From: Anaerolineaceae bacterium
GTDB taxonomy: Bacteria; Chloroflexota; Anaerolineae; Anaerolineales; UBA11657
NCBI GenBank assembly: GCA_003569365.1
Contig: BGOS01000003.1
Span: 192,315-256,314, forward strand
DNA: 64,000 nt
Reading direction: 5' to 3'
Part shown: piece by piece, positions 1,530 to 62,999 of the stretch
Numbering within the stretch: position 1 is the stretch's first letter
Layout: each line of letters starts with the position of its first letter
Program-made: the position numbers and the translations under genes
The notes under the pieces: generated by a model
Databases searched by the model: none
Told to the model about the DNA's origin: nothing
The model's input: only the letters and a program-made list of their open reading frames with translations

Positions 1530-2857
1530 GGGTGCGGGTTGGCCAGAAGCTGTGCCGCGCTGGCCGCCTGCAGCTGGAGCAGAAGTTCGTGCTCAGCCGC
1601 TGGGGCGGTGGCAAGTGCGAGTGCGGCATGCTTGCCAGCTGGTTCGGGTTGCTGCAGCGACATGTACAGCTGTGCGAGGGTGCGGTGCACCGTCCATGGC
1701 TTGAACTTGGCGGCGCTTCCGGGTTGATCGTCATTTTCTGGCGTTGCGTCGGTGGCTAGCGGTTCACTGATGACTTGTTCAAAGATATCGGCGGCAATTT
1801 TGTAGTCAGCGCTTTGCGTGGATGCGGCGCTGCTTGCCGCACCGCGCTGCAGCCAAAGATTGCCAAGCAGCAGTTTGATTTCCGCAGCCGAGGTGCCAAC
1901 CGGATTGACGAGCGCCGCGCTGTAGAAAGACAGCGCATCATCGAAATCGCTGCTGGTTGCTTGTGGACTGAGGGCGCGGGCAGCGGAGACATTGCCGAGC
2001 AGCACAAGCGAGCGGGAGTTCGTGGGATCTTCGTTCAGGGCGCGCTTAAGTTTTTCGGCGGCCGCAGCATAGTCATGAAATACTTCGTAATCCAGCACGG
2101 CCCAGTTTTGCCACCAGCGTGCGTCATGCGGGTTGAGCCGCAAGGCAGCTGCCGAGTAGTTGTCGGAGCGATTGGCGATGGCGTTGCGGTCGGTCGGGTC
2201 TTCAGTATCTTGTGCCATATCAAAGTTCAGGCGCGCCAGGCTGATCAGGTGGTTTGGATTGAACGGGCTGATTTGCAGGGCACGCTCCAAACTTGCGCGC
2301 GCAATGGCACGCATGCCGGCGCGCTCGCCTTGGCTCGCTTGGCTGCGCGCCGCAAGGAGCGCGGTGCGCCCGTGCAGATACCAATACTCGTCTTCGCGTG
2401 GCGCGAGTTCTGTGGCTTCGGCGAGCAGTGCGAGTGCTTTAGCTGGCGTTGCAGCCTGCACCAGATTGCGGTGGGCATCTGCTGCGCGTGATCCAATATA
2501 GATTGCGGTAAGTGCTACGCCAAGTGCCAGGAAGCCCGCGAGTGGCGCGAGCACAACGGTTGCCGGAGTGGAGTTTCGGTTGGGCAGCTCACGGATGGCC
2601 AGCGCAAGGCCAAGCCCCGCTGTGACCAGCACAACCCAGGCTGCAAAAGAATATATGGATGCGCTGCGGGTTGCTGCTATGTTCAGAATTGCATCAGTCT
2701 CCGGGAGGGAAGGCGGGTTCAGGCGAAGTTGGTTCCATGCGAAATACATGAGCGGCAGGCTAAGGCCAATTACAAGCATGGCGCGCAGCTGCGTGGCAGA
2801 TGCAGCGTGGCCAAGTGCGATTGCTGCGGCTGTGGCGGCACATGCAAGCAGCAGCAA
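1526..2857 (-). CDS. Transmembrane + TPR-repeat segment; probably the 3' half of a frameshifted Wzy_C-TPR gene whose 5' half is 2760..4679
   Basis: 443-aa ORF with a non-ATG (TTG) start and no independent RBS. Hydrophobic N-terminal third, then TPR-like helical repeats (EDEYWYLHGRTALL..., NPHDARWWQNWAVLDYE...). Colinear with the C-terminal half of the intact 1046-aa paralog. Confidence 0.7.
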   Translation of the reverse strand: MLLLACAATAAAIALGHAASATQLRAMLVIGLSLPLMYFAWNQLRLNPPSLPETDAILNIAATRSASIYSFAAWVVLVTAGLGLALAIRELPNRNSTPATVVLAPLAGFLALGVALTAIYIGSRAADAHRNLVQAATPAKALALLAEATELAPREDEYWYLHGRTALLAARSQASQGERAGMRAIARASLERALQISPFNPNHLISLARLNFDMAQDTEDPTDRNAIANRSDNYSAAALRLNPHDARWWQNWAVLDYEVFHDYAAAAEKLKRALNEDPTNSRSLVLLGNVSAARALSPQATSSDFDDALSFYSAALVNPVGTSAAEIKLLLGNLWLQRGAASSAASTQSADYKIAADIFEQVISEPLATDATPENDDQPGSAAKFKPWTVHRTLAQLYMSLQQPEPAGKHAALALATAPAAEHELLLQLQAASAAQLLANPHP

Positions 2858-4679
2858 GCACCGAGGCCGGTGCGGTGGAATTTATTCCAACCCCGGGGGT
2901 AAGAAAGCCAAAGATTAGTGTGGTGCTGGCAAGCACAGCCGGCAGTGCTAATTCAGCACCGATGGCTCCGGCACGGGCAGGCGCGGCAGCAGATTCCCGT
3001 TTTGCAATATTCTTTGCGGTTGGTTTAACTTCAGGCTGTGCTTCTTGGGTCGGCTGCCGCAGTTGCTCCCAGTTCCAAATTAATACCGCCAGCATTATGA
3101 AGTGCAGGTCGGTAGCTACAGTGGCGATTCCAAATTGGGCCTCCACAAAATGCGCCAGGGCTGCGCCGGCAAATCCTGCAAGTAGTACATCGGCGGGCTG
3201 CGCAGGCCGCGGAGCCAAGAAGGCGCTGAGCACTGGGAACATTAACGTGCCAGCTGCGAGGCCGAGTGCTACGGCAACGGCTGCCAATTCAGGGATGCGC
3301 AGCAGCAAGATTGTTAGCAGTCCAGCAGCAGCGCCGGTGATCTGCAGGGTCCAAAGCCCATAGCGGCTCTTCGAACTGTTAATGAACCCCATGTTTAGGA
3401 GCAGCTTGTTAGCAAGCGATGCCCACAGGAGGTACAGTGCAGCCGCGCCGATGATGCCGGTGGCGAGCAGTGTGTCCCAAAGTATGTTGTGCGCGCGGTC
3501 GGAGAACAGCGCGTTGTGGAATTCGGTGCGGTAGGAGGGCGCAAGCACAAAGCCGGCAGTCTCGGGCCCGTAGCCGATCAGAAGGCGCAGCCAGCTCCAG
3601 CGATCAATGCTGCCGTCGGCGTAGATTAGCGGCGGAGTTGTCGTCAGCGCTGCTTGGGCGCGGTGCCATGTTTCCAGGCGCAGACTTGTGCCGGCTTCGG
3701 TGCGGTTGGTGGTGTCCCACAGATGTGCGATGCGGCCAAGGTAAGGTTCGTCGCGCAGTGTTTCGAGCGGTCCATTTGGCATGTTGAGCGCCAGCACTGA
3801 CAGCAGGCCAGCAACAACAAGACTAAACAGTGCGAACAGAACCTTGCGGTTGTTGACAGCAGCGGCCTGACAGATGGCCATGAATAAAAGTCCAGCGGCG
3901 AGTCCCAGCCATGGTCCGCGGCTGCCGGTAAACCAAATTGCCTCCAGCTGCGCAGCAGCAGACACCACATGCAGTGTGGCATATGCCAGCTGGCGTCCGC
4001 GTGCGCTGCCGCCGCGCAGCAGTTGGAGCGCGCGTGCGATTGTGACGGGCAGGGTGAGCACCAGGTAAGCGCCCAAAAAGATCGGGTTGCCTTGCGTAGA
4101 GGAGACCCGGTCTGCAAGAAACGATTTGCCCCACTCGGCAGGGTCGAGTCCGAGGTGCTGAAAAATTCCGTAAAGCGCAGTTACAGTTGCAGCCAGAACA
4201 ATTGTGTCCAGCAGACGCTGCACTTGGGCGTGCCGACGCAGGCCAACGCATTGTGCAACCAACACTGCGAGCAGGCATAATTCATAGAGTGTTCCGTGGG
4301 CGCGCAAGTAGGAGCCGTTCCAGCTGACTTGTGGTGCGATGGATAGAGCAGTGCTGATGAGCAGCGCACCTGCGATGCCGGCGTAGGCCGGCGGGATAAC
4401 GGCTGCTGCGCCGGCGGCGGTTGTAGTTTGCCCGGAGTAGCGCCAGACACTGACGCGCAGCAGCAGTGCGGCAAGCAGCATGCCCGCTAGGACTTGAAAC
4501 AGCGCAATTTTGTCCGGCTCGAAGATTGTGAAGGTGTGCAGGTTGAAGTGCAGTGCAACCACTACGATAGATGCGAGCCAACTTGCTTCAGCAATCCCAT
4601 CTGCAATTGCGGCCAGAGCGGCGGGCAGATTTGGGATGCGGTTGTGCGGTTTATTCACAGGGTTATTTTGCGGGCGCAA
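2760..4679 (-). CDS. O-antigen-ligase (Wzy_C)-like polytopic membrane protein, 5' part of the middle paralog
   Basis: 639-aa ORF. Motifs FEPDK, QGNPIFLGAYL, FTGSRGPWLGL, IGYGPETAG, SDRAHNILWD. The last ~20 aa (CMCRHSRSNRTWPRCICHAAARHACNWP) look out of frame. TTG start at 4679 (a GTG at 4658 is also possible) overlaps the upstream gene. Confidence 0.75.
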   Translation of the reverse strand: MRPQNNPVNKPHNRIPNLPAALAAIADGIAEASWLASIVVVALHFNLHTFTIFEPDKIALFQVLAGMLLAALLLRVSVWRYSGQTTTAAGAAAVIPPAYAGIAGALLISTALSIAPQVSWNGSYLRAHGTLYELCLLAVLVAQCVGLRRHAQVQRLLDTIVLAATVTALYGIFQHLGLDPAEWGKSFLADRVSSTQGNPIFLGAYLVLTLPVTIARALQLLRGGSARGRQLAYATLHVVSAAAQLEAIWFTGSRGPWLGLAAGLLFMAICQAAAVNNRKVLFALFSLVVAGLLSVLALNMPNGPLETLRDEPYLGRIAHLWDTTNRTEAGTSLRLETWHRAQAALTTTPPLIYADGSIDRWSWLRLLIGYGPETAGFVLAPSYRTEFHNALFSDRAHNILWDTLLATGIIGAAALYLLWASLANKLLLNMGFINSSKSRYGLWTLQITGAAAGLLTILLLRIPELAAVAVALGLAAGTLMFPVLSAFLAPRPAQPADVLLAGFAGAALAHFVEAQFGIATVATDLHFIMLAVLIWNWEQLRQPTQEAQPEVKPTAKNIAKRESAAAPARAGAIGAELALPAVLASTTLIFGFLTPGVGINSTAPASVLAAACMCRHSRSNRTWPRCICHAAARHACNWP

Positions 4680-57282: not shown

Positions 57283-57339
57283 GCGGTGCGCTGCCACAAA
57301 TGCGTTAGGATGTTATGCGCCTGCGAACACTACTGATTG

Positions 57340-57927
57340 ATGATGAACACTGCTGAAAGAACTTCCGAAACGCACCCGATTGAGGTGGGCTGGCTAAGCG
57401 ATCTGTGGCCGGGGCGCGTGGGCTTAACCCTAGCGCCGGGCAAGCAGCAGCCGGGTGGTCTTAGCGGCGCCTGGATGCGCAACTTGGAGCTGGACCTGCA
57501 ACGACTGCGCACTGTATATGGCGCGCAGCATCTGGTGTGCCTGCTGGAGGATCGCGAGCTTGTGAAGCTGGCGATTGGCGAGCTGCCGCAGCGCGCGGCA
57601 GCAAACGGGCTGGAGTTTCACCGCTTGCCCATCCAGGATGGCAGCCTCCCGGCGGAAGTTGGTGCGGTGCGCGAGCTTGTAGTGCGCATCTGCAGCTGGG
57701 CTGCGGCGGGGCAGACGACGGTGATTCATTGCATGGGCGGGCTGGGGCGCGCCGGCACAATTGGCGGCTGCGTGCTGCGCGCAGCCGGCTTGGATGCGCC
57801 CGCTGCTTTTGCAGCGCTGCTGGCGGCGCGCGGCGTGAACTGTCCGGAGACAAATGAGCAGCGCCTTTATGTGCAGCAGTTTAGCGTGGGACAGGGGGTT
57901 TGCCGCAAAAGCTATACGGGCCGATAA
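57340..57927 (+). CDS. Cys-based protein tyrosine/dual-specificity phosphatase (CDKN3-like)
   Basis: CX5R P-loop VIHCMGGLGRAGTIGG. Start is ATG 57340 (or TTG 57337). Confidence 0.8.
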   Translation: MMNTAERTSETHPIEVGWLSDLWPGRVGLTLAPGKQQPGGLSGAWMRNLELDLQRLRTVYGAQHLVCLLEDRELVKLAIGELPQRAAANGLEFHRLPIQDGSLPAEVGAVRELVVRICSWAAAGQTTVIHCMGGLGRAGTIGGCVLRAAGLDAPAAFAALLAARGVNCPETNEQRLYVQQFSVGQGVCRKSYTGR

Positions 57928-57929
57928 CT

Positions 57930-58799
57930 TCACTCTTCGTATTGCTCGACGATAACAGCGATTAATTTTGTGACAATTATGTTTTGTGATTTCAGGTCAG
58001 CTGCGGTGAGATTGAATACTAACCGATCATTGTTTTGCTCTGCTTCAAGTCCAGCTTCTTGAATTTGACTGACATTTGCAGCGTTCCAGGCATTTGGCAT
58101 GATTACTCGCAAGTGGTTCTTGCGCGGCCGAAAATGAATGAAGTTTCTTGATCGCTCTCCGTCTGACAGTCCAATGTAATGCTTGTTGAAGTTAAGTTGG
58201 TATGTTGTCTTGGTGTGCTGGTTAATTATTTTTAGGACTTCGTCTGCCGTTTGCATGACAGTTGCAGAACTGCGCTTGACCCAGTCTTCCCGGTCTGATG
58301 GTGCTGGGCGCACCTCTGTTACATCGTCGCGCCGCAGCGAGCGCTGGTCAAGGACGGTGGTGAAGCTGAGGATGACTTTGTCGTCAATACTTAGGGCTTG
58401 CAATTGAATTGCGATCAGGGGCAGCGTACCTGCTAATAGTGCAAGAACATTCAGAAAGCGGCTGGTTATATCTTCGGCCACAATTACAGCGCAGTGATCG
58501 TATGCGGGGTACCTGCGGCGTTCGATGTCCCAGTATTCCAAGCATCTAATAATGTGCGATTCATCGGTCGCACCGAGCATTAGTTCAACTTCATAGCGTG
58601 TGTCCGCGTCGGTATCTGCAAGGAGCAGGTCCAGCCGGCCAGCGCGATCCTGCTGGCGTTCGCGATCCAGTAGCTCAATTTCCCCGAGACCGATTATCGC
58701 GGGATTTTCTGCAATGCGGTCCTGAAGCCATTTCTCGTTCAGTTCCGCATGCCCTTTAAGTATGATGCGTTTATGTGGTGTATAGGTTAGCGTGGTCAT
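57930..58799 (-). CDS. Predicted PD-(D/E)xK (NucS/DUF91-like) nuclease-fold protein with a C-terminal DUF5655-like domain
   Basis: 289 aa, markedly low GC. N-terminal region NPAIIGLGEIELLDRERQQDRAGRLDLLLADTDADTRYEVELMLGATDESHIIRCLEYW fits the restriction-endonuclease-like pattern (D...E-x-[K/Q]). The C-terminal HYIGLSDGERSRNFIHFRPRKNHLRVIM resembles DUF5655. Both assignments are from memory. Confidence 0.65.
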   Translation of the reverse strand: MTTLTYTPHKRIILKGHAELNEKWLQDRIAENPAIIGLGEIELLDRERQQDRAGRLDLLLADTDADTRYEVELMLGATDESHIIRCLEYWDIERRRYPAYDHCAVIVAEDITSRFLNVLALLAGTLPLIAIQLQALSIDDKVILSFTTVLDQRSLRRDDVTEVRPAPSDREDWVKRSSATVMQTADEVLKIINQHTKTTYQLNFNKHYIGLSDGERSRNFIHFRPRKNHLRVIMPNAWNAANVSQIQEAGLEAEQNNDRLVFNLTAADLKSQNIIVTKLIAVIVEQYEE

Positions 58800-58835
58800 G
58801 GTGGGTTTCCTGTGTTGTGGGCTCTTAATGACTGG

Positions 58836-59720
58836 CTACGCTGCCGCTTCCGCATCCTGAATTTCCTTTAGCATGCGGCCGTCATCAGTTTTCCATGCGG
58901 TGCGCCCGTTTGATGCTCTGCCCAGCAAGACACCGGATGCAGTGGAAGGCGAGTTGAAGGTGTAATCCTGCGAGAGCGTTAAACCAGCACCGGCAGGTGC
59001 TGGGATGAGGACTCCTTGGCGCTGTAGGTCAGCCCGAATGGTGCGGAGATATTCCTGGGCTGATGCGGTGATATTGTCATCAATGACGGCCTGCGCGCCT
59101 TTGTAGACAACGAAGCCTGCGGCTGTATCCCGCCCCGAGGCTTTTATTCCGCGTGCGCTTAGAAAGAGTAAGTGTTTGTCAGTGGGCACCGTAATGGTTG
59201 TTTCAAATAGCGAGTACCCAACGAGCGGCAGGCACAAAAGCAGGTCGTCGAGGAATCCTTCCGCCGTTGCCGCGTCGGATTCCGACAGTGATGGTGCGCC
59301 GGGTAGAACTACGTTCTCGAGTACGCAGCGCTTGGCAGCTTGCGCCAGTTCCACGAGCCGGGATTCCAGCAACTGCACATGGGCTTTGTTGAGATTTGTA
59401 TCCTTACTGGTGAAGATTACGGCATGCGTCCAGAAGTCTTTTCTGTTTGCATGCTGTTCAAGGCGGGCTTTTACCGGATCGCCTTCGCCCACATAGAGGC
59501 GCGGTAGCGCAGAGGTCTCGTCAGGGCCAACCAGCAGATAAACGCCCGTGCGATTGAGTTCCTCGCGGTGCTTACTCTCGCCAAACATCGCGCGTGGGAT
59601 CACCAGGCCACGCCCGGTCCAGTTGGATTTTTCTACTACCTTGAGTCCTTCGGGATTGCCACCCGGAAGATAAACATTGACCGAGAAGGGGCGCCGCGTG
59701 TCGGTTGCTATTGGTGACAT
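58836..59720 (-). CDS. GIY-YIG nuclease-family protein with C-terminal DUF4357-like (methylase-associated) domain
   Basis: 294 aa. Motifs NRTGVYLLVG...LYVGEGDPVKARLEQH (GIY...YxG...R) and NLNKAHVQLLESRL. The C-terminus FNSPSTASGVLLGRASNGRTAWK resembles DUF4357. Confidence 0.75.
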   Translation of the reverse strand: MSPIATDTRRPFSVNVYLPGGNPEGLKVVEKSNWTGRGLVIPRAMFGESKHREELNRTGVYLLVGPDETSALPRLYVGEGDPVKARLEQHANRKDFWTHAVIFTSKDTNLNKAHVQLLESRLVELAQAAKRCVLENVVLPGAPSLSESDAATAEGFLDDLLLCLPLVGYSLFETTITVPTDKHLLFLSARGIKASGRDTAAGFVVYKGAQAVIDDNITASAQEYLRTIRADLQRQGVLIPAPAGAGLTLSQDYTFNSPSTASGVLLGRASNGRTAWKTDDGRMLKEIQDAEAAA

Positions 59721-59998
59721 GGTTTGACGGTTGCCTCTCTGAGGTTATTGCCTAGTGGGTTGTGTCTTTTGTGGCGCGGCGCGCTTGGTGATGGGTTGGT
59801 GAGCTATTGCACTTGGGCAATTTGTCGATATTCAGTTGTTTTTCCCGACAAGCAGTTGTACGCTGCAGCTGTGATGCTGTTCATCTGACTATTGTAATGC
59901 GGAGCCGTCCGTGGCTGGTGGGTGGGGTGATGTGCGTTGGGCGCGCCGTCGATTGACAGGTCCCATATACTCAAAGCGGGTATATTGGAGGCACGATA

Positions 59999-60262
59999 AT
60001 GACAAGCCGCCGGAAGGGATCATCCTTATTATGGAAAGCAGTGACACTGCCGCTTGGGTTGGGGTTAATTGTTGTGAAGGGCACTGCATTGCTTGGCCTG
60101 GTGGCGGGAGCTGCGGTGTATCACGGCGTGAAGGCCGCACGCCGTAGCGCGCAGTATGACAAACTTTCTAAAGAGCGCGCCCTGCTCTACGCCCGCTTGT
60201 CTGAGGCCGACCGGATAAAGTTCGACTTAGCCGAGGTCAAACGCAAGATTGACGGTCTTTAG
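59999..60262 (+). CDS. Small membrane protein (87 aa; TM hairpin + charged C-terminal helix)
   Basis: ATG 8 nt after GGAGG. Sequence LLWKAVTLPLGLGLIVVKGTALLGLVAGAAVY, then a KR/E-rich helix. Confidence 0.55.
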   Translation: MTSRRKGSSLLWKAVTLPLGLGLIVVKGTALLGLVAGAAVYHGVKAARRSAQYDKLSKERALLYARLSEADRIKFDLAEVKRKIDGL

Positions 60263-60443
60263 TGCGCGGAGGTGCCGCCGGGGAGTGTTGTTTGCGGTGC
60301 CAGCGGGGCTGGGCTTGCTGGCCGTGCCCATACTAAACAAGCCGGTACCATTGGCGGCTGCGCTGCTGCTGTGCGCGGGCTGTTGGACCCAAGCAGCATT
60401 AGGCGGGACTATTCAGACACTTTTTGCCGGGCTGTTTGAATAA
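60249..60443 (+). CDS. Possible very small membrane protein (about 52-64 aa)
   Basis: This ORF overlaps both neighbours. The likely start is GTG 60285, downstream of GGAGG (60268-72). Two hydrophobic segments. Weak call. Confidence 0.3.
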   Translation: MTVFSARRCRRGVLFAVPAGLGLLAVPILNKPVPLAAALLLCAGCWTQAALGGTIQTLFAGLFE

Positions 60444-62037
60444 GCCGGCCAGCCTTGCGCTTGCAGTGCTTTTGGCTGCGGGTGCCCTGTATGTATCCGC
60501 CAGCAGCGCAGCTGCCGCAACCGCCACAGCCACGCAGACGCCTGCCGGGCGTGCGACGGCCACCAGAACTCCACTGGCACCTAAATCTGTAGAGACAGCC
60601 ACGGGCACTGGCAAGAAAACTTCCGCTCCATCTGCAACCAAACTTGCGAATGGCACTGCCACCCGGTTACCCAACAAAACCGCCACCAAGCTAAAGGGTA
60701 AAAACGCCACTGCGCAACCCAACGCCACCGGGACGAAGGTACAAAACAAAATTGCAACCGCTGCGCCCAACAGCACCGCCACGCAAGCGCCCAATAAAGC
60801 TGCGCCGCGGCTGCCAACCGCTACAGCCGCCAGAAATGCCACGCGCGTGCAGCCCGATGCTAACGGGCCGGATGCAACGGGTGTGCCGACGGCGACGCCA
60901 ATGGCGCCTGCACCATCGCCAACGCGCATTCCGCTGCGGCCAAGTGCAACTGCGGTTGCAACGCGGCCGCCTGCGACATCTCAAGCCCCGGCGCTTACCG
61001 CCACGCCAGTGCCAACGGCGCTTGCGCCAGCTGCAACTGTGCCACCAGGTGGCGGCGCACCGCAGCCAAACATCCGCGGCAACGGCAGTGTGCCTGGTTA
61101 CGATCGCAGCTCATGGAAACATTGGGTGGATGCCGACCGTGACTGCCAGGACACGCGCGCCGAAGTGTTAATTGCCGAGAGCCTTGAGCCGGTGACGTTC
61201 ACCAGCAGCGCCAACTGTACGGTGCTGGGCGGGCGCTGGTATGACCCGTATACGAATGCTGTTTACACAGTTGCGCGTGAGTTGGATGTGGATCACTTTG
61301 TGCCGCTGGGTGACGCCCACAGCTCGGGCGGATCTGATTGGGCGCCGGACCGCAAACAGGACTACGCCAATTCGCTGGCCGATGCCGACCACTTGATTGC
61401 AGTGTCGGCGTCGGCCAATCGCGCCAAAGGCAGCCGCGCGCCGGATGAATGGAAGCCGCCCAATCAGGGCTACTGGTGTGAGTATGCTTATGACTGGATT
61501 CGTGTGAAGGCCGCGTGGGGGCTTTCTGTCACGCAAAGCGAATGGGTCGCTGTGAATAGCATGACGGCCACTTGCCCGGCTGGCTATACATATGCCAACG
61601 CTGCCAGCCAACCCGCTGCGCCCGCCGCTGCGCCCGCAACCGCGGTGGTGGTGGTGCCAGCCCCGCCTCAACCAACTGCAACGGCCGTGATAGTGGTTGT
61701 GCCAACAGAGGTGCCGGTTGTGGCAACTGCCGTTGTGGTGGCAACGGATGTGCCAGTGCCTGCGGCTGCGCCAACTGTTGCGCCCACCGATGTGCCCACG
61801 CCTGCGCCCGCTGCCACGGCCGTGGCTGCCGGCCAGTGCGCTCCCGGCCAGATTGATGTCAACAGTGCCGCGCTGGAGGACTTGCAGCGCATCATCCACA
61901 TTGGCGCTACGCGCGCGCAAGCGCTGATTGCGCTGCGGCCGTTCTCCAGCGTCAGTGATTTGGCGCGCATCAGCGGCATTGGCAATGGGACGCGCCTGGC
62001 CGCGATCAAAGCTGAGAATTTGGCGTGTGTGAACTAG
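60424..62037 (+). CDS. Secreted nuclease: signal peptide, T/A/P/N-rich repeat linker, DUF1524/GmrSD-C HNH-type endonuclease domain, A/V/P/T linker, ComEA-like helix-hairpin-helix DNA-binding domain
   Basis: 537 aa. Signal peptide ASLALAVLLAAGALYVSASSAAAA. Nuclease core YDRSSWKHWVDADRDCQDTRAEVL...DVDHFVPLGDAH...DHLIAVSASANRAKGSRAPDEWKPP. C-terminus IDVNSAALEDLQRIIHIGATRAQALIALRPFSSVSDLARISGIGNGT. Confidence 0.8.
   Translation: MPGCLNKPASLALAVLLAAGALYVSASSAAAATATATQTPAGRATATRTPLAPKSVETATGTGKKTSAPSATKLANGTATRLPNKTATKLKGKNATAQPNATGTKVQNKIATAAPNSTATQAPNKAAPRLPTATAARNATRVQPDANGPDATGVPTATPMAPAPSPTRIPLRPSATAVATRPPATSQAPALTATPVPTALAPAATVPPGGGAPQPNIRGNGSVPGYDRSSWKHWVDADRDCQDTRAEVLIAESLEPVTFTSSANCTVLGGRWYDPYTNAVYTVARELDVDHFVPLGDAHSSGGSDWAPDRKQDYANSLADADHLIAVSASANRAKGSRAPDEWKPPNQGYWCEYAYDWIRVKAAWGLSVTQSEWVAVNSMTATCPAGYTYANAASQPAAPAAAPATAVVVVPAPPQPTATAVIVVVPTEVPVVATAVVVATDVPVPAAAPTVAPTDVPTPAPAATAVAAGQCAPGQIDVNSAALEDLQRIIHIGATRAQALIALRPFSSVSDLARISGIGNGTRLAAIKAENLACVN
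60637..60852 (+). repeat. Degenerate in-frame tandem repeats (about 6-10 codons each) encoding N-x-T-A-T-x-x-P-like units
   Basis: TKLANGTATRLP / NKTATKLKGK / NATAQP / NATGTKVQNK / IATAAP / NSTATQAP / NKAAPRLP / TATAAR / NATRVQ. Six N-x-T sequons fall within 72 residues. Confidence 0.55.
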
Positions 62038-62076: not shown

Positions 62077-62454
62077 TGATTATTCCTGGGTCTGATTGTC
62101 GTACTTGCATTGTTGGTGGCGCTATTCTTTATTTTTCGTGAAGTGCTTCTTTGGTACTGGAAAATTAACGAAGTTGTTGGACTCTTGACCCGAATTGCGC
62201 GGGCCCTGGAGGCAAACTCGCGTGTCCAATCAGCTGATGTAACGTTGCGGCGGCCTGTGCCGGACACATTCGTGACAGAAAGAAATGGAGATACGGAATC
62301 TCCGGGCAGTGCGACCGACCAACTTGCGGCATTGAGTGCTAGGATTGATGCACTGGTCGCGCAGCAAAAATTTATGGGTCCGGGGCAACCTAGGCGAAAG
62401 GTACTTCGCGACGAAATTGAAGAATTGCGTGCGCAGAGGAATAGAATGCTGTAA
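62077..62454 (+). CDS. Small single-pass membrane protein with C-terminal coiled-coil (about 125 aa)
   Basis: I extended the track ORF (62110) to the in-frame GTG at 62077, 11 nt after GGAGG. TM segment LFLGLIVVLALLVALFFIF, then REVLLWYWKINE and a helical tail. Confidence 0.5.
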
Positions 62455-62654
62455 TTGTGACTTGGCGCGCATGCGGTGCATTGGCAATATTCTGCGCTTG
62501 GTGTCTATGAATGCCGATAATCTTGGTTTGGGTATAGACGATGCAAAGGCCGCACATGGGCCGACTGTTGCGCCTGTGTATTACGATTTTGTTTCGTAGC
62601 TCGATTTTGATGATTGTCTAAGGTTAGATTTGTCGGCCACACTATAATGAGTAA

Positions 62655-62999
62655 ATGTTTGCTGCTGTAATCATCTGGATCTTGTCCGGCATTGGCGCCG
62701 CGATGATTGCGTCAAGCAAGAACCGCAGCGGTTGCGGCTGGTTCGCTGCGGGTCTTTTGCTCGGGCCGATCGCGCTGTTGATTGTGGGCTTTATGGCGCC
62801 TGGCGAGGCACCCGCCAAGCCGCTGCCCGGAAAAGCCCAACGAGAACATCCTGATGCTGCCGCTGAGCGCCTTTCAGCCTCGGGGCAAACGGGTGCAAGC
62901 CAAACGAAAGAGTGCCCATTTTGCGCAGAAACCATTCAAGCTAAAGCAATTCTCTGCCGTTACTGTAGTCGGGACTTGCCGCCACCATCTTACGGATAG
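62655..62999 (+). CDS. Small membrane protein with C-terminal zinc-ribbon
   Basis: 114 aa. Two TM segments (AAVIIWILSGIGAAMIA, WFAAGLLLGPIALLIVGF), then CPFCAE...CRYC. Confidence 0.6.
   Translation: MFAAVIIWILSGIGAAMIASSKNRSGCGWFAAGLLLGPIALLIVGFMAPGEAPAKPLPGKAQREHPDAAAERLSASGQTGASQTKECPFCAETIQAKAILCRYCSRDLPPPSYG

Follow-up and report, generated by a model that had tools for sequence, protein, structure and literature searches.

Layout of the A-B cassette

The window analyzed here is a 64,000-nucleotide (nt) stretch of contig BGOS01000003.1 from BD1, a draft genome of the CL500-11 Chloroflexi population of the Lake Biwa hypolimnion. Within it, two minus-strand genes, designated A and B, form a short cassette. 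The open reading frame (ORF) listing of the window places A at 58836-59720 (-; 294 amino acids, aa) and B at 57930-58799 (-; 289 aa); the corresponding GenBank entries, GBL36553/GBL36554, both read 'hypothetical protein'. A 36-nt spacer (58800-58835, -), which reads ...TAGccagtcattaagagcccacaacacAGGAaacccaccATG, separates the two genes. It carries an AGGA Shine-Dalgarno-like element ahead of the ATG of B, and a terminator scan identified no terminator-like site within it. Judged from the sequence, A and B are likely co-transcribed. At the other end of the cassette, the stop codon of B starts from 57930, leaving 2 nt to the TAA stop (57925-57927) of a convergent phosphatase gene. A first-pass annotation of this DNA had described the same two minus-strand ORFs, the same spacing and the same gap to the phosphatase gene, and the ORF listing and the sequence bear it out. 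By the evidence of many relatives and many invariant alignment columns, both A and B are real genes.

A strain-variable defense hotspot

The cassette lies between two anchors. The left anchor (57337-57927, +) encodes a dual-specificity phosphatase-like protein (CDKN3/PTP-SAK in Pfam), with products of 186-196 aa among strains. The right anchor, orf87 (59999-60262, +), encodes a small predicted membrane protein and is kept beside every type of cargo described below. For comparison, 20 conspecific contigs (L175-L194) were found via orf87 and a flanking 124-aa gene. The flanks are 96-99% identical between the window and these contigs, with a left junction at 57,883/84 or 57,890, within ~12 codons of the end of the phosphatase gene. 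On the right, the match resumes at 59,890 or 59,924, and the DNA between the junctions is unrelated. In the window, this variable slot (57891-59923) holds only B, A, and the upstream region of A (59721-59923, -), the presumed location of the promoter, in which no sigma-70-type consensus was found.

The other contigs fill the slot with at least seven further types of cargo, all oriented as A-B; with A+B, at least eight mutually exclusive cargoes are represented, and no empty slot was seen among the strains compared. Four of these are type I restriction-modification (R-M) systems, two of them with embedded genes: hsdR, a HEC-05-like GmrSD_N gene (L185:5337-7109), hsdS and hsdM in one; hsdR, a DUF4268 gene (329 aa; L186:6010-6999), hsdS and hsdM in another; and two further variants. 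The remainder are a type III system (Res and Mod) together with a GmrSD_N gene; a complete Shango system (SngC 4e-265, SngB 2e-181, SngA 1e-84); and an EVE-domain protein matching PDC-M26A, together with a DUF2357/PDDEXK_7 protein. The phosphatase-orf87 interval is thus a strain-variable defense hotspot, and the A-B cassette is one of its cargoes. Since the other cargoes are recognized defense systems, the location itself supports a defense role, and from it we infer that A and B are both probably defense genes, in line with the role that the first-pass annotation had proposed. As a separate observation, L190 also carries a single gene embedded between hsdR and hsdS of its type I R-M cargo.

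The slot bears no hallmarks of a mobile element: no tRNA, no convincing flanking repeats, and no integrase or hsd remnants were seen in it. The two tight classes of junction on each side fit an exchange by recombination in the conserved flanks. The horizontal exchange proposed earlier therefore stands, while its description as an inserted cassette, in the sense of a mobile-element insertion, gives way to a pattern of cargo swapping via conserved flanks. A 22-nt imperfect direct repeat (57751-57772 / 60341-60362, 91% identical) loosely brackets the slot; each copy falls within a gene and at a distance from the mapped junctions, so that chance is the probable explanation.

Strain-variable defense hotspots and islands are known in Vibrio, Pseudomonas and E. 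coli. The present interval resembles them in its conserved core flanks, its sharp junctions, and its mutually exclusive defense cargoes in near-identical strains. It differs in its setting, an uncultivated freshwater Chloroflexi lineage, and in that no integrase, tRNA or repeats were seen.

Base composition also sets the slot apart. GC content is 49.1% in B and 56.5% in A, as compared to 62% and 59% in the flanks and 59.1% in the whole window. The 2,033-bp slot has the lowest GC among 620 windows of the 64 kb (0.528, against a mean of 0.591 with a standard deviation of 0.024). The same holds for GC at third codon positions (GC3), which is 0.51 in B and 0.59 in A, as compared to 0.64-0.77 in neighboring genes, and is lowest in the window within the slot. 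The GC dip noted earlier is therefore real, marking the lowest-GC 2-kb stretch, but milder than had been estimated by eye: B had been put in the mid-40s, whereas ~45% is reached only by 300-nt windows at its 3' end, and the flanks stand at the 62% and 59% given above.

The same cassette adjoins the same phosphatase gene in a more distant relative (L091-L093), where the first ~100 nt upstream of A are kept along with it. Its alignment to these contigs extends over 57,929-59,823 at 92.7% nt identity, while the flank is at about 82%. This suggests either a recent exchange between the window lineage and L091-L093 or a cargo under far tighter constraint than the flank. In the comparison of these contigs with window positions 57,776-59,823, the phosphatase gene beside the cassette is about 82-86% identical at the nt level over short stretches, and its C-terminus in L091 and L093 shows 59% aa identity.

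Gene A belongs to the candidate family PDC-S14

According to an AlphaFold2 (AF2) model (pLDDT 86) and its sequence matches, A begins with a small beta domain, continues with a GIY-YIG-like core and a linker of helices, and ends in a DUF4357/RAMA-like domain. The PADLOC model PDLC04923, for PDC-S14, matches A at 8.3e-94, with aa 10-292 aligned to positions 23-314 of the 320 in the model, and four other PDC-S14 models also match. By these profile matches, A is a full-length member of the catalogued single-gene candidate PDC-S14. The first-pass annotation could match the locus to no named system; the PADLOC check supplies such a match for A and none for B, which has no match at E up to 1. PDC-S14 is one of the 145 'phage defence candidates' of Payne et al. 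2024 (bioRxiv 10.1101/2024.01.29.577857), a set drawn up from genes that lie inside BREX, DISARM or type I R-M loci. The seven experimentally confirmed systems of that study are another set, and the PDC systems are listed as predictions.

The GIY-YIG-like core of A spans about aa 55-130 (59331-59558, -) and carries the motifs GVYLLVG and LYVGEGD together with R86, H90, N111 and E119. In an alignment of 33 family sequences, G59/V60/Y61, Y76/G78/E79/G80, R86, H90, N111 and E119 show little or no variation. A profile of this core, drawn from 127 diverse members of the family, was run in hhalign against 97 E. coli and phage T4 ORFs as controls. The sole control that it picked is E. coli UvrC, at 76.6% probability and E 2e-5; the 96 others reach 2.6% at most, and the T4 proteins SegA, SegF and I-TevII give no match. 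The alignment pairs GVY with GVY, YVG with YVG, and R86 with the catalytic arginine of UvrC. Consistent with this, the AF2 model of the core follows the beta-beta-alpha-beta-alpha order expected for GIY-YIG, GIY-YIG and homing/intron endonuclease names are enriched among the weak viral structure-library matches of A, and RefSeq labels the plasmid homologs of A 'GIY-YIG nuclease family protein'. The GIY-YIG assignment is accordingly moderately well supported. A library search with the nuclease core alone returned, among its best 150 matches, only proteins of the ~290-aa A architecture and no other GIY-YIG architectures. Sequence and profile searches of both A and B against PDB sequences yielded nothing usable.

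The C-terminal domain of A (aa 229-284; 58869-59036, -) is DUF4357, matching PF14267 at 2.5e-16 and 59.8 bits (cut-off 38.4); the domain is present in all 33 family members. RAMA overlaps it weakly, in 22 of the 33 members. In A this match scores 14.9 bits where 35.2 are needed, so that it marks an overlap only and falls short of RAMA membership. The motifs that had been read in A, its DUF4357 domain and its GIY-YIG core are thus all upheld by the family alignments, the Pfam score and the UvrC alignment.

Relatives of A are numerous (2,695 scored), and the architecture is constant at about 290 aa over 3,215 clusters at 50% identity. The family also occurs on plasmids and in a few phages. In about 24 of 61 analyzed A-centered loci, type I R-M genes lie within three genes of A, typically as hsdM-hsdS-[A]-x-hsdR (e.g., L101, L119, L128, L138 and L142), and PADLOC matches among 132 A-neighbor proteins include 22 for MTase_I and 15 for Specificity_I. 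The A-family gene in such operons is often joined by further embedded genes (L127, L128, L130, L138), namely a DUF4268 protein upstream and a protein with SLFN/AlbA_2 and HATPase_c_4 domains downstream, giving multi-gene hsdS-hsdR inserts. The window copy lies outside any R-M system, and the slot contains no methyltransferase, as the first-pass annotation had stated.

These contexts define the relation of A to known systems. A shares with PDC-S14 both full-length model matches and relatives embedded in type I R-M operons. It departs from it in standing beside B in a hotspot rather than within an R-M system, PDC-S14 being a single-gene candidate without B. In many genomes an A-family gene is found between hsdS and hsdR, a position also taken by prrC; PrrC, however, is an anticodon nuclease, whereas A is a predicted GIY-YIG DNA nuclease with no R-M system in the window. 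The closest functional analogs would be the winged-helix (wH) GIY-YIG type IV enzymes Ahi29725I and Apa233I and the 'GIY-YIG-RAMA' fusions (PMC11037411). Like A, these combine a nuclease and a putative modification reader in one polypeptide and have no cognate methylase. The reader of the wH-GIY-YIG enzymes is a winged helix, whereas that of A is DUF4357/RAMA-like and follows the nuclease.

Gene B belongs to a large unnamed family

The relatives of gene B number more than 7,900 and fall in no Pfam family, and B is annotated 'hypothetical protein' wherever it was looked up. The family is spread patchily over Acidobacteriota, Planctomycetota, Proteobacteria, Chloroflexota and other phyla, with one member in an archaeal metagenome-assembled genome (MAG). 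Identity across phyla is 43-66%, with more than 50 invariant residues. It is rare on plasmids, and a phage collection gave no match. This patchy distribution and the atypical GC3 of B point to horizontal transfer. Shedu/DUF4263 does not match B either in PADLOC (E up to 1) or in Pfam (E up to 5).

The N-terminal domain of the AF2 model (pLDDT 85) has a NucS-like PD-(D/E)xK fold (aa 21-119; 58443-58739, -). Its best Foldseek match is EndoMS/NucS (5gke), at a probability of 1.00 over 99 columns, with a root-mean-square deviation of 2.1 Å and 25% identity, which places it within the restriction-endonuclease-like fold of PD-(D/E)xK proteins. The resemblance is one of fold with the C-terminal nuclease domain of NucS. 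Against the NCBIfam NucS model NF003270, B scores 17.5 bits, far below the cut-off of 216, and its domain order is the reverse of that of NucS, in which an N-terminal DNA-binding domain precedes the nuclease. B also differs in its second domain, which is double-wing/DUF5655-like, and in a D...ExE/M motif in place of D...ExK.

The active-site region departs from the canonical D...(D/E)xK triad. D57, E70, E72, D79, H82 and an EYWDIERRRYP block are invariant in the family, and G54/R55 are conserved. D57 and E72 thus remain, while the K/Q position after E72-x is occupied by M74 (M in at least 90% of members, Q in one). An extra invariant residue, E70, lies on the same strand as E72 and may compensate for the missing lysine. 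The lysine position is not sacrosanct: BamHI has E there and BglII has Q. Alignments with DUF4268 proteins bear on the same position. These proteins, which are embedded in type I R-M loci and also fused to GmrSD, are similar to B in size and in N-terminal motif order, and one DUF4268 gene is embedded in a type I R-M cargo of this slot. A single register pairs D57 with D, E72-L-M74 with E-N-Q, and TDESH with TDHTH, which makes the reading of M as a replacement of K/Q plausible. This agrees with the first-pass annotation, which had noted M at that position, and these are the only alignments obtained that bear on it. The two kinds of protein differ in their C-terminal domains (DUF4268 as compared to DUF5655-like). 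Homology between them is left unproven: the register is consistent and the similarity is weak (BLASTP E 0.008; hhalign E 0.019, 2.5% probability).

The C-terminal domain of B (aa 170-289; 57933-58292, -) matches the 'double wing' of the T4 MotA C-terminal DNA-binding domain (1kaf, 5jlt), 3fov, and a YdhG-like protein. DUF5655 is detected in 8 of 38 family members (best E 8.4e-5), and the window copy scores 12.7 bits (E 0.13) against a gathering score of 24. On these modeled folds, the domain is a probable DNA-binding module. The B motifs and the pairing of a NucS-like fold with a DUF5655-like C-terminus, as first read from the sequence, are upheld by the family alignments and by the fold search, in which the C-terminus is MotA-like.

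The neighbors of B include defense families (Mokosh, Hhe, type I, IIG and IV restriction, MADS, PARIS, AbiL, PglX), as well as toxin-antitoxin genes, Mrr, MmeI and transposases. Housekeeping genes are also common beside it, namely those for AMP-binding enzymes, GNAT acetyltransferases and TPR proteins. There is no recurrent neighbor, the largest neighbor cluster accounting for 4 of 431 proteins. B could represent a new, widespread family of stand-alone anti-mobile-element proteins with a rewired D/E/E site and a MotA-like double-wing reader, which in the window may have been recruited beside PDC-S14, so that two methylase-free nucleases with different folds respond to different signatures of foreign DNA; this proposal is a tentative one, to which we give somewhat less than even odds.

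The two families are seldom neighbors

Pairing of A and B was surveyed in 83 B-centered loci from many phyla and 80 A-centered loci. An A-family gene lies near B in two of the former, L055 and L007. L055, a Phycisphaerae MAG, carries at 2382-4174 a B-like gene (45% identity) followed after a 27-nt gap by an A-like gene (39% identity). This order is opposite to that in the window, and it is the sole independent direct adjacency in about 160 loci. L007 carries an A-like fragment 1.6 kb from B. Among the A-centered loci, B is found beside A in three of 80, all of them in L091-L093 (A at 91% identity, same lineage), and in none of the 77 whose A is no more than 70% identical. The upstream neighbors of A are mixed and include lipase, integrase, peptidase, DUF3800, DUF5677 and PIN_3 proteins. 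The only PD-(D/E)xK neighbor of A is PDC-S02 (L094:314-1249), a NucS_C/YhcG-like protein (PADLOC 3e-150) directly upstream of an A homolog (1397-2287) and unrelated to B. The idea that a divergent NucS-like neighbor of A hides a partner equivalent to B was rejected, as a profile search for cryptic B-like partners was negative. The first-pass annotation had proposed a two-gene module and had itself named a failure of the families to co-localize in other genomes as grounds for abandoning it; this is essentially what the counts show. Although probably co-transcribed, A and B are on balance more probably independent in function.

Interpretation of the cassette

The reading that best accounts for these data, at a rough probability of 0.62, is that the cassette is a hotspot cargo of two independent, self-contained nuclease genes that share one transcription unit by chance. 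Under this reading, A would most likely be a methylase-free (type IV-like) restriction endonuclease, in which the C-terminal DUF4357/RAMA-like domain reads the state of the DNA and the GIY-YIG core cuts nearby. B would most likely target DNA on its own, as a second effector or sensor, with a specificity unlike that of A and a non-canonical active site. The cargo would be swapped between strains through recombination in the conserved flanks. While gene structure, family membership, folds, the scarcity of A-B pairs elsewhere, slot boundaries and the alternative cargoes can be read directly, we infer the nuclease activity, the recognized target and the independent action of the two proteins.

Precedents for the proposed reader come from the literature. 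RAMA was defined as a domain that shares its polypeptide with N6-adenine methylases or with restriction nucleases of various folds, and a role in reading adenine methylation was predicted for it (PMC4738411). 'GIY-YIG-RAMA' fusions have been flagged as uncharacterized candidate type IV enzymes (PMC11037411), and DUF4357 is also found on GmrSD type IV enzymes (PMC4619093).

Several observations weigh against this assignment. For A, Pfam PF01541 (GIY-YIG) is not reached by the window copy and is matched by only 2 of 33 relatives, at E 0.13 or worse, and a Foldseek search of the full-length model against the PDB gave no meaningful match. The literature holds survey mentions of PDC-S14 only, with no proposed mechanism found for it and no experimental support for a defense role found either for it or for B. 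A preference of RAMA for N6-methyladenine (m6A) was not confirmed experimentally for MPND (PMC11037411). The DNA of the host, BD1, itself carries m6A at GANTC and TTAA, along with N4-methylcytosine (m4C) at GCWGC, so that any m6A-dependent activity of A must be context-specific. For B, the absence of the canonical lysine means that the protein may not cut DNA, and the defense content of its neighborhoods is a raw scatter, given with no random-gene background. As to independence, A and B travel together in two diverged lineages, probably on one transcript, and an A-like and a B-like gene are adjacent in the unrelated Phycisphaerae genome.

One alternative is that B is not a defense gene at all, but a NucS-like repair or recombination nuclease, a degenerate DNA-binding protein, or a selfish hitch-hiker with A. 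The best structural match of B is indeed a mismatch-repair nuclease, its conservation across phyla (43-66% identity) is unusually high for a defense gene, PADLOC holds no model for it, many of its neighbors are housekeeping genes, and its canonical lysine is missing. The link to repair is weakened by the failure of the NucS membership test and by the absence of the NucS domain order, and no conserved syntenic housekeeping partner accompanies the gene. The patchy distribution and atypical GC3, which point to horizontal transfer, also count against it. All other contents of its slot are defense systems, and elsewhere it sits beside toxin-antitoxin genes, Mrr, MmeI, transposases, Mokosh and PARIS. 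This alternative is therefore judged unlikely.

A second alternative is that, in this lineage, the two genes cooperate as one system: one protein might, for example, recognize or nick DNA that is foreign or modified, leaving its cleavage to be completed by the other. In a variant of this proposal, B would serve A as a degenerate sensor or regulator, for which the M at its catalytic K/Q position could speak. The shared orientation and terminator-free 36-nt spacer would suit such a system, A+B make up the entire slot cargo, and the genes are kept together in L087-L093, with a cassette more conserved than its flanks. The independent adjacency in L055, the nearby fragment in L007, and the presence of another PD-(D/E)xK candidate, PDC-S02, beside an A homolog in L094 point the same way. 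The survey argues otherwise: pairing is seen in none of the 77 other A-centered loci and in two of the 83 B-centered ones, and the gene order in L055 is reversed. At that frequency, A beside B is comparable to the other defense families found there, each of which accounts for 1-3 of 141 neighbor proteins. Both families are mostly solitary and strongly conserved when alone, and independent systems are stacked in other cargoes of this slot too, as in the type III R-M system with its GmrSD_N gene. A cooperative system is thus quite improbable.

That A is a selfish homing-type GIY-YIG endonuclease gene invading R-M operons and hotspots can be set aside as very improbable: although the fold is the classic one of homing endonucleases, its viral fold matches are homing or intron endonucleases, and A-family genes are met as single insertions, whether in operons, plasmids or a few phages, no intron, intein, repeat hallmarks or duplicated target site was found, the DUF4357/RAMA domain is common to R-M methylases and GmrSD enzymes rather than a DNA-binding module of homing endonucleases, the ~290-aa architecture is conserved over the 3,215 clusters, and A is exchanged here jointly with B via flank recombination.

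For annotation, A can carry the label PDC-S14 (GIY-YIG plus DUF4357/RAMA-like) and should be presented neither as an undescribed system nor as one half of a pair. The most informative new fact is the hotspot, and B is a new candidate family. B belongs to a large family with neither a Pfam nor a PADLOC model, now has location-based evidence for a defense role, and is a cheap candidate for testing. The hotspot is cleanly bounded and holds at least eight cargoes, and its host ranks among the most abundant uncultivated bacteria in deep lakes; the hotspot could be used for mining further cargoes. In Lake Biwa MAGs, defense genes, type I R-M above all, are reported to be those most often hit by deletions (PMC9426551), and the hotspot is a concrete case of a defense-gene turnover known for this lake only at the ecosystem level. 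The general view of defense is unchanged, as single-gene nuclease candidates and defense hotspots are both well-known kinds.

Other features near the slot

To the right of orf87, the window encodes a 537-aa protein (60424-62037, +) whose N-terminal half is of low complexity and rich in Ala, Thr and Pro; GmrSD_C (DUF1524) and HHH_3 domains come after it. Gene calls in the different strains give it 298/302 aa or 522-537 aa. The protein resembles a DNase that is secreted or on the cell surface more than a defense enzyme of the GmrSD type. The sole Rfam match, IRES_Bip at 60316-60371, scores 22.5 bits against a gathering score of 40 and was dismissed as spurious. A second strain-variable segment lies at ~62,217-62,882 and is missing from L185, L186, L188, L192 and L194. 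Next to this segment, the GmrSD_C/HHH gene has its 3' end repeated over 65 nt (61955-62019 / 62457-62521, 71% identical).

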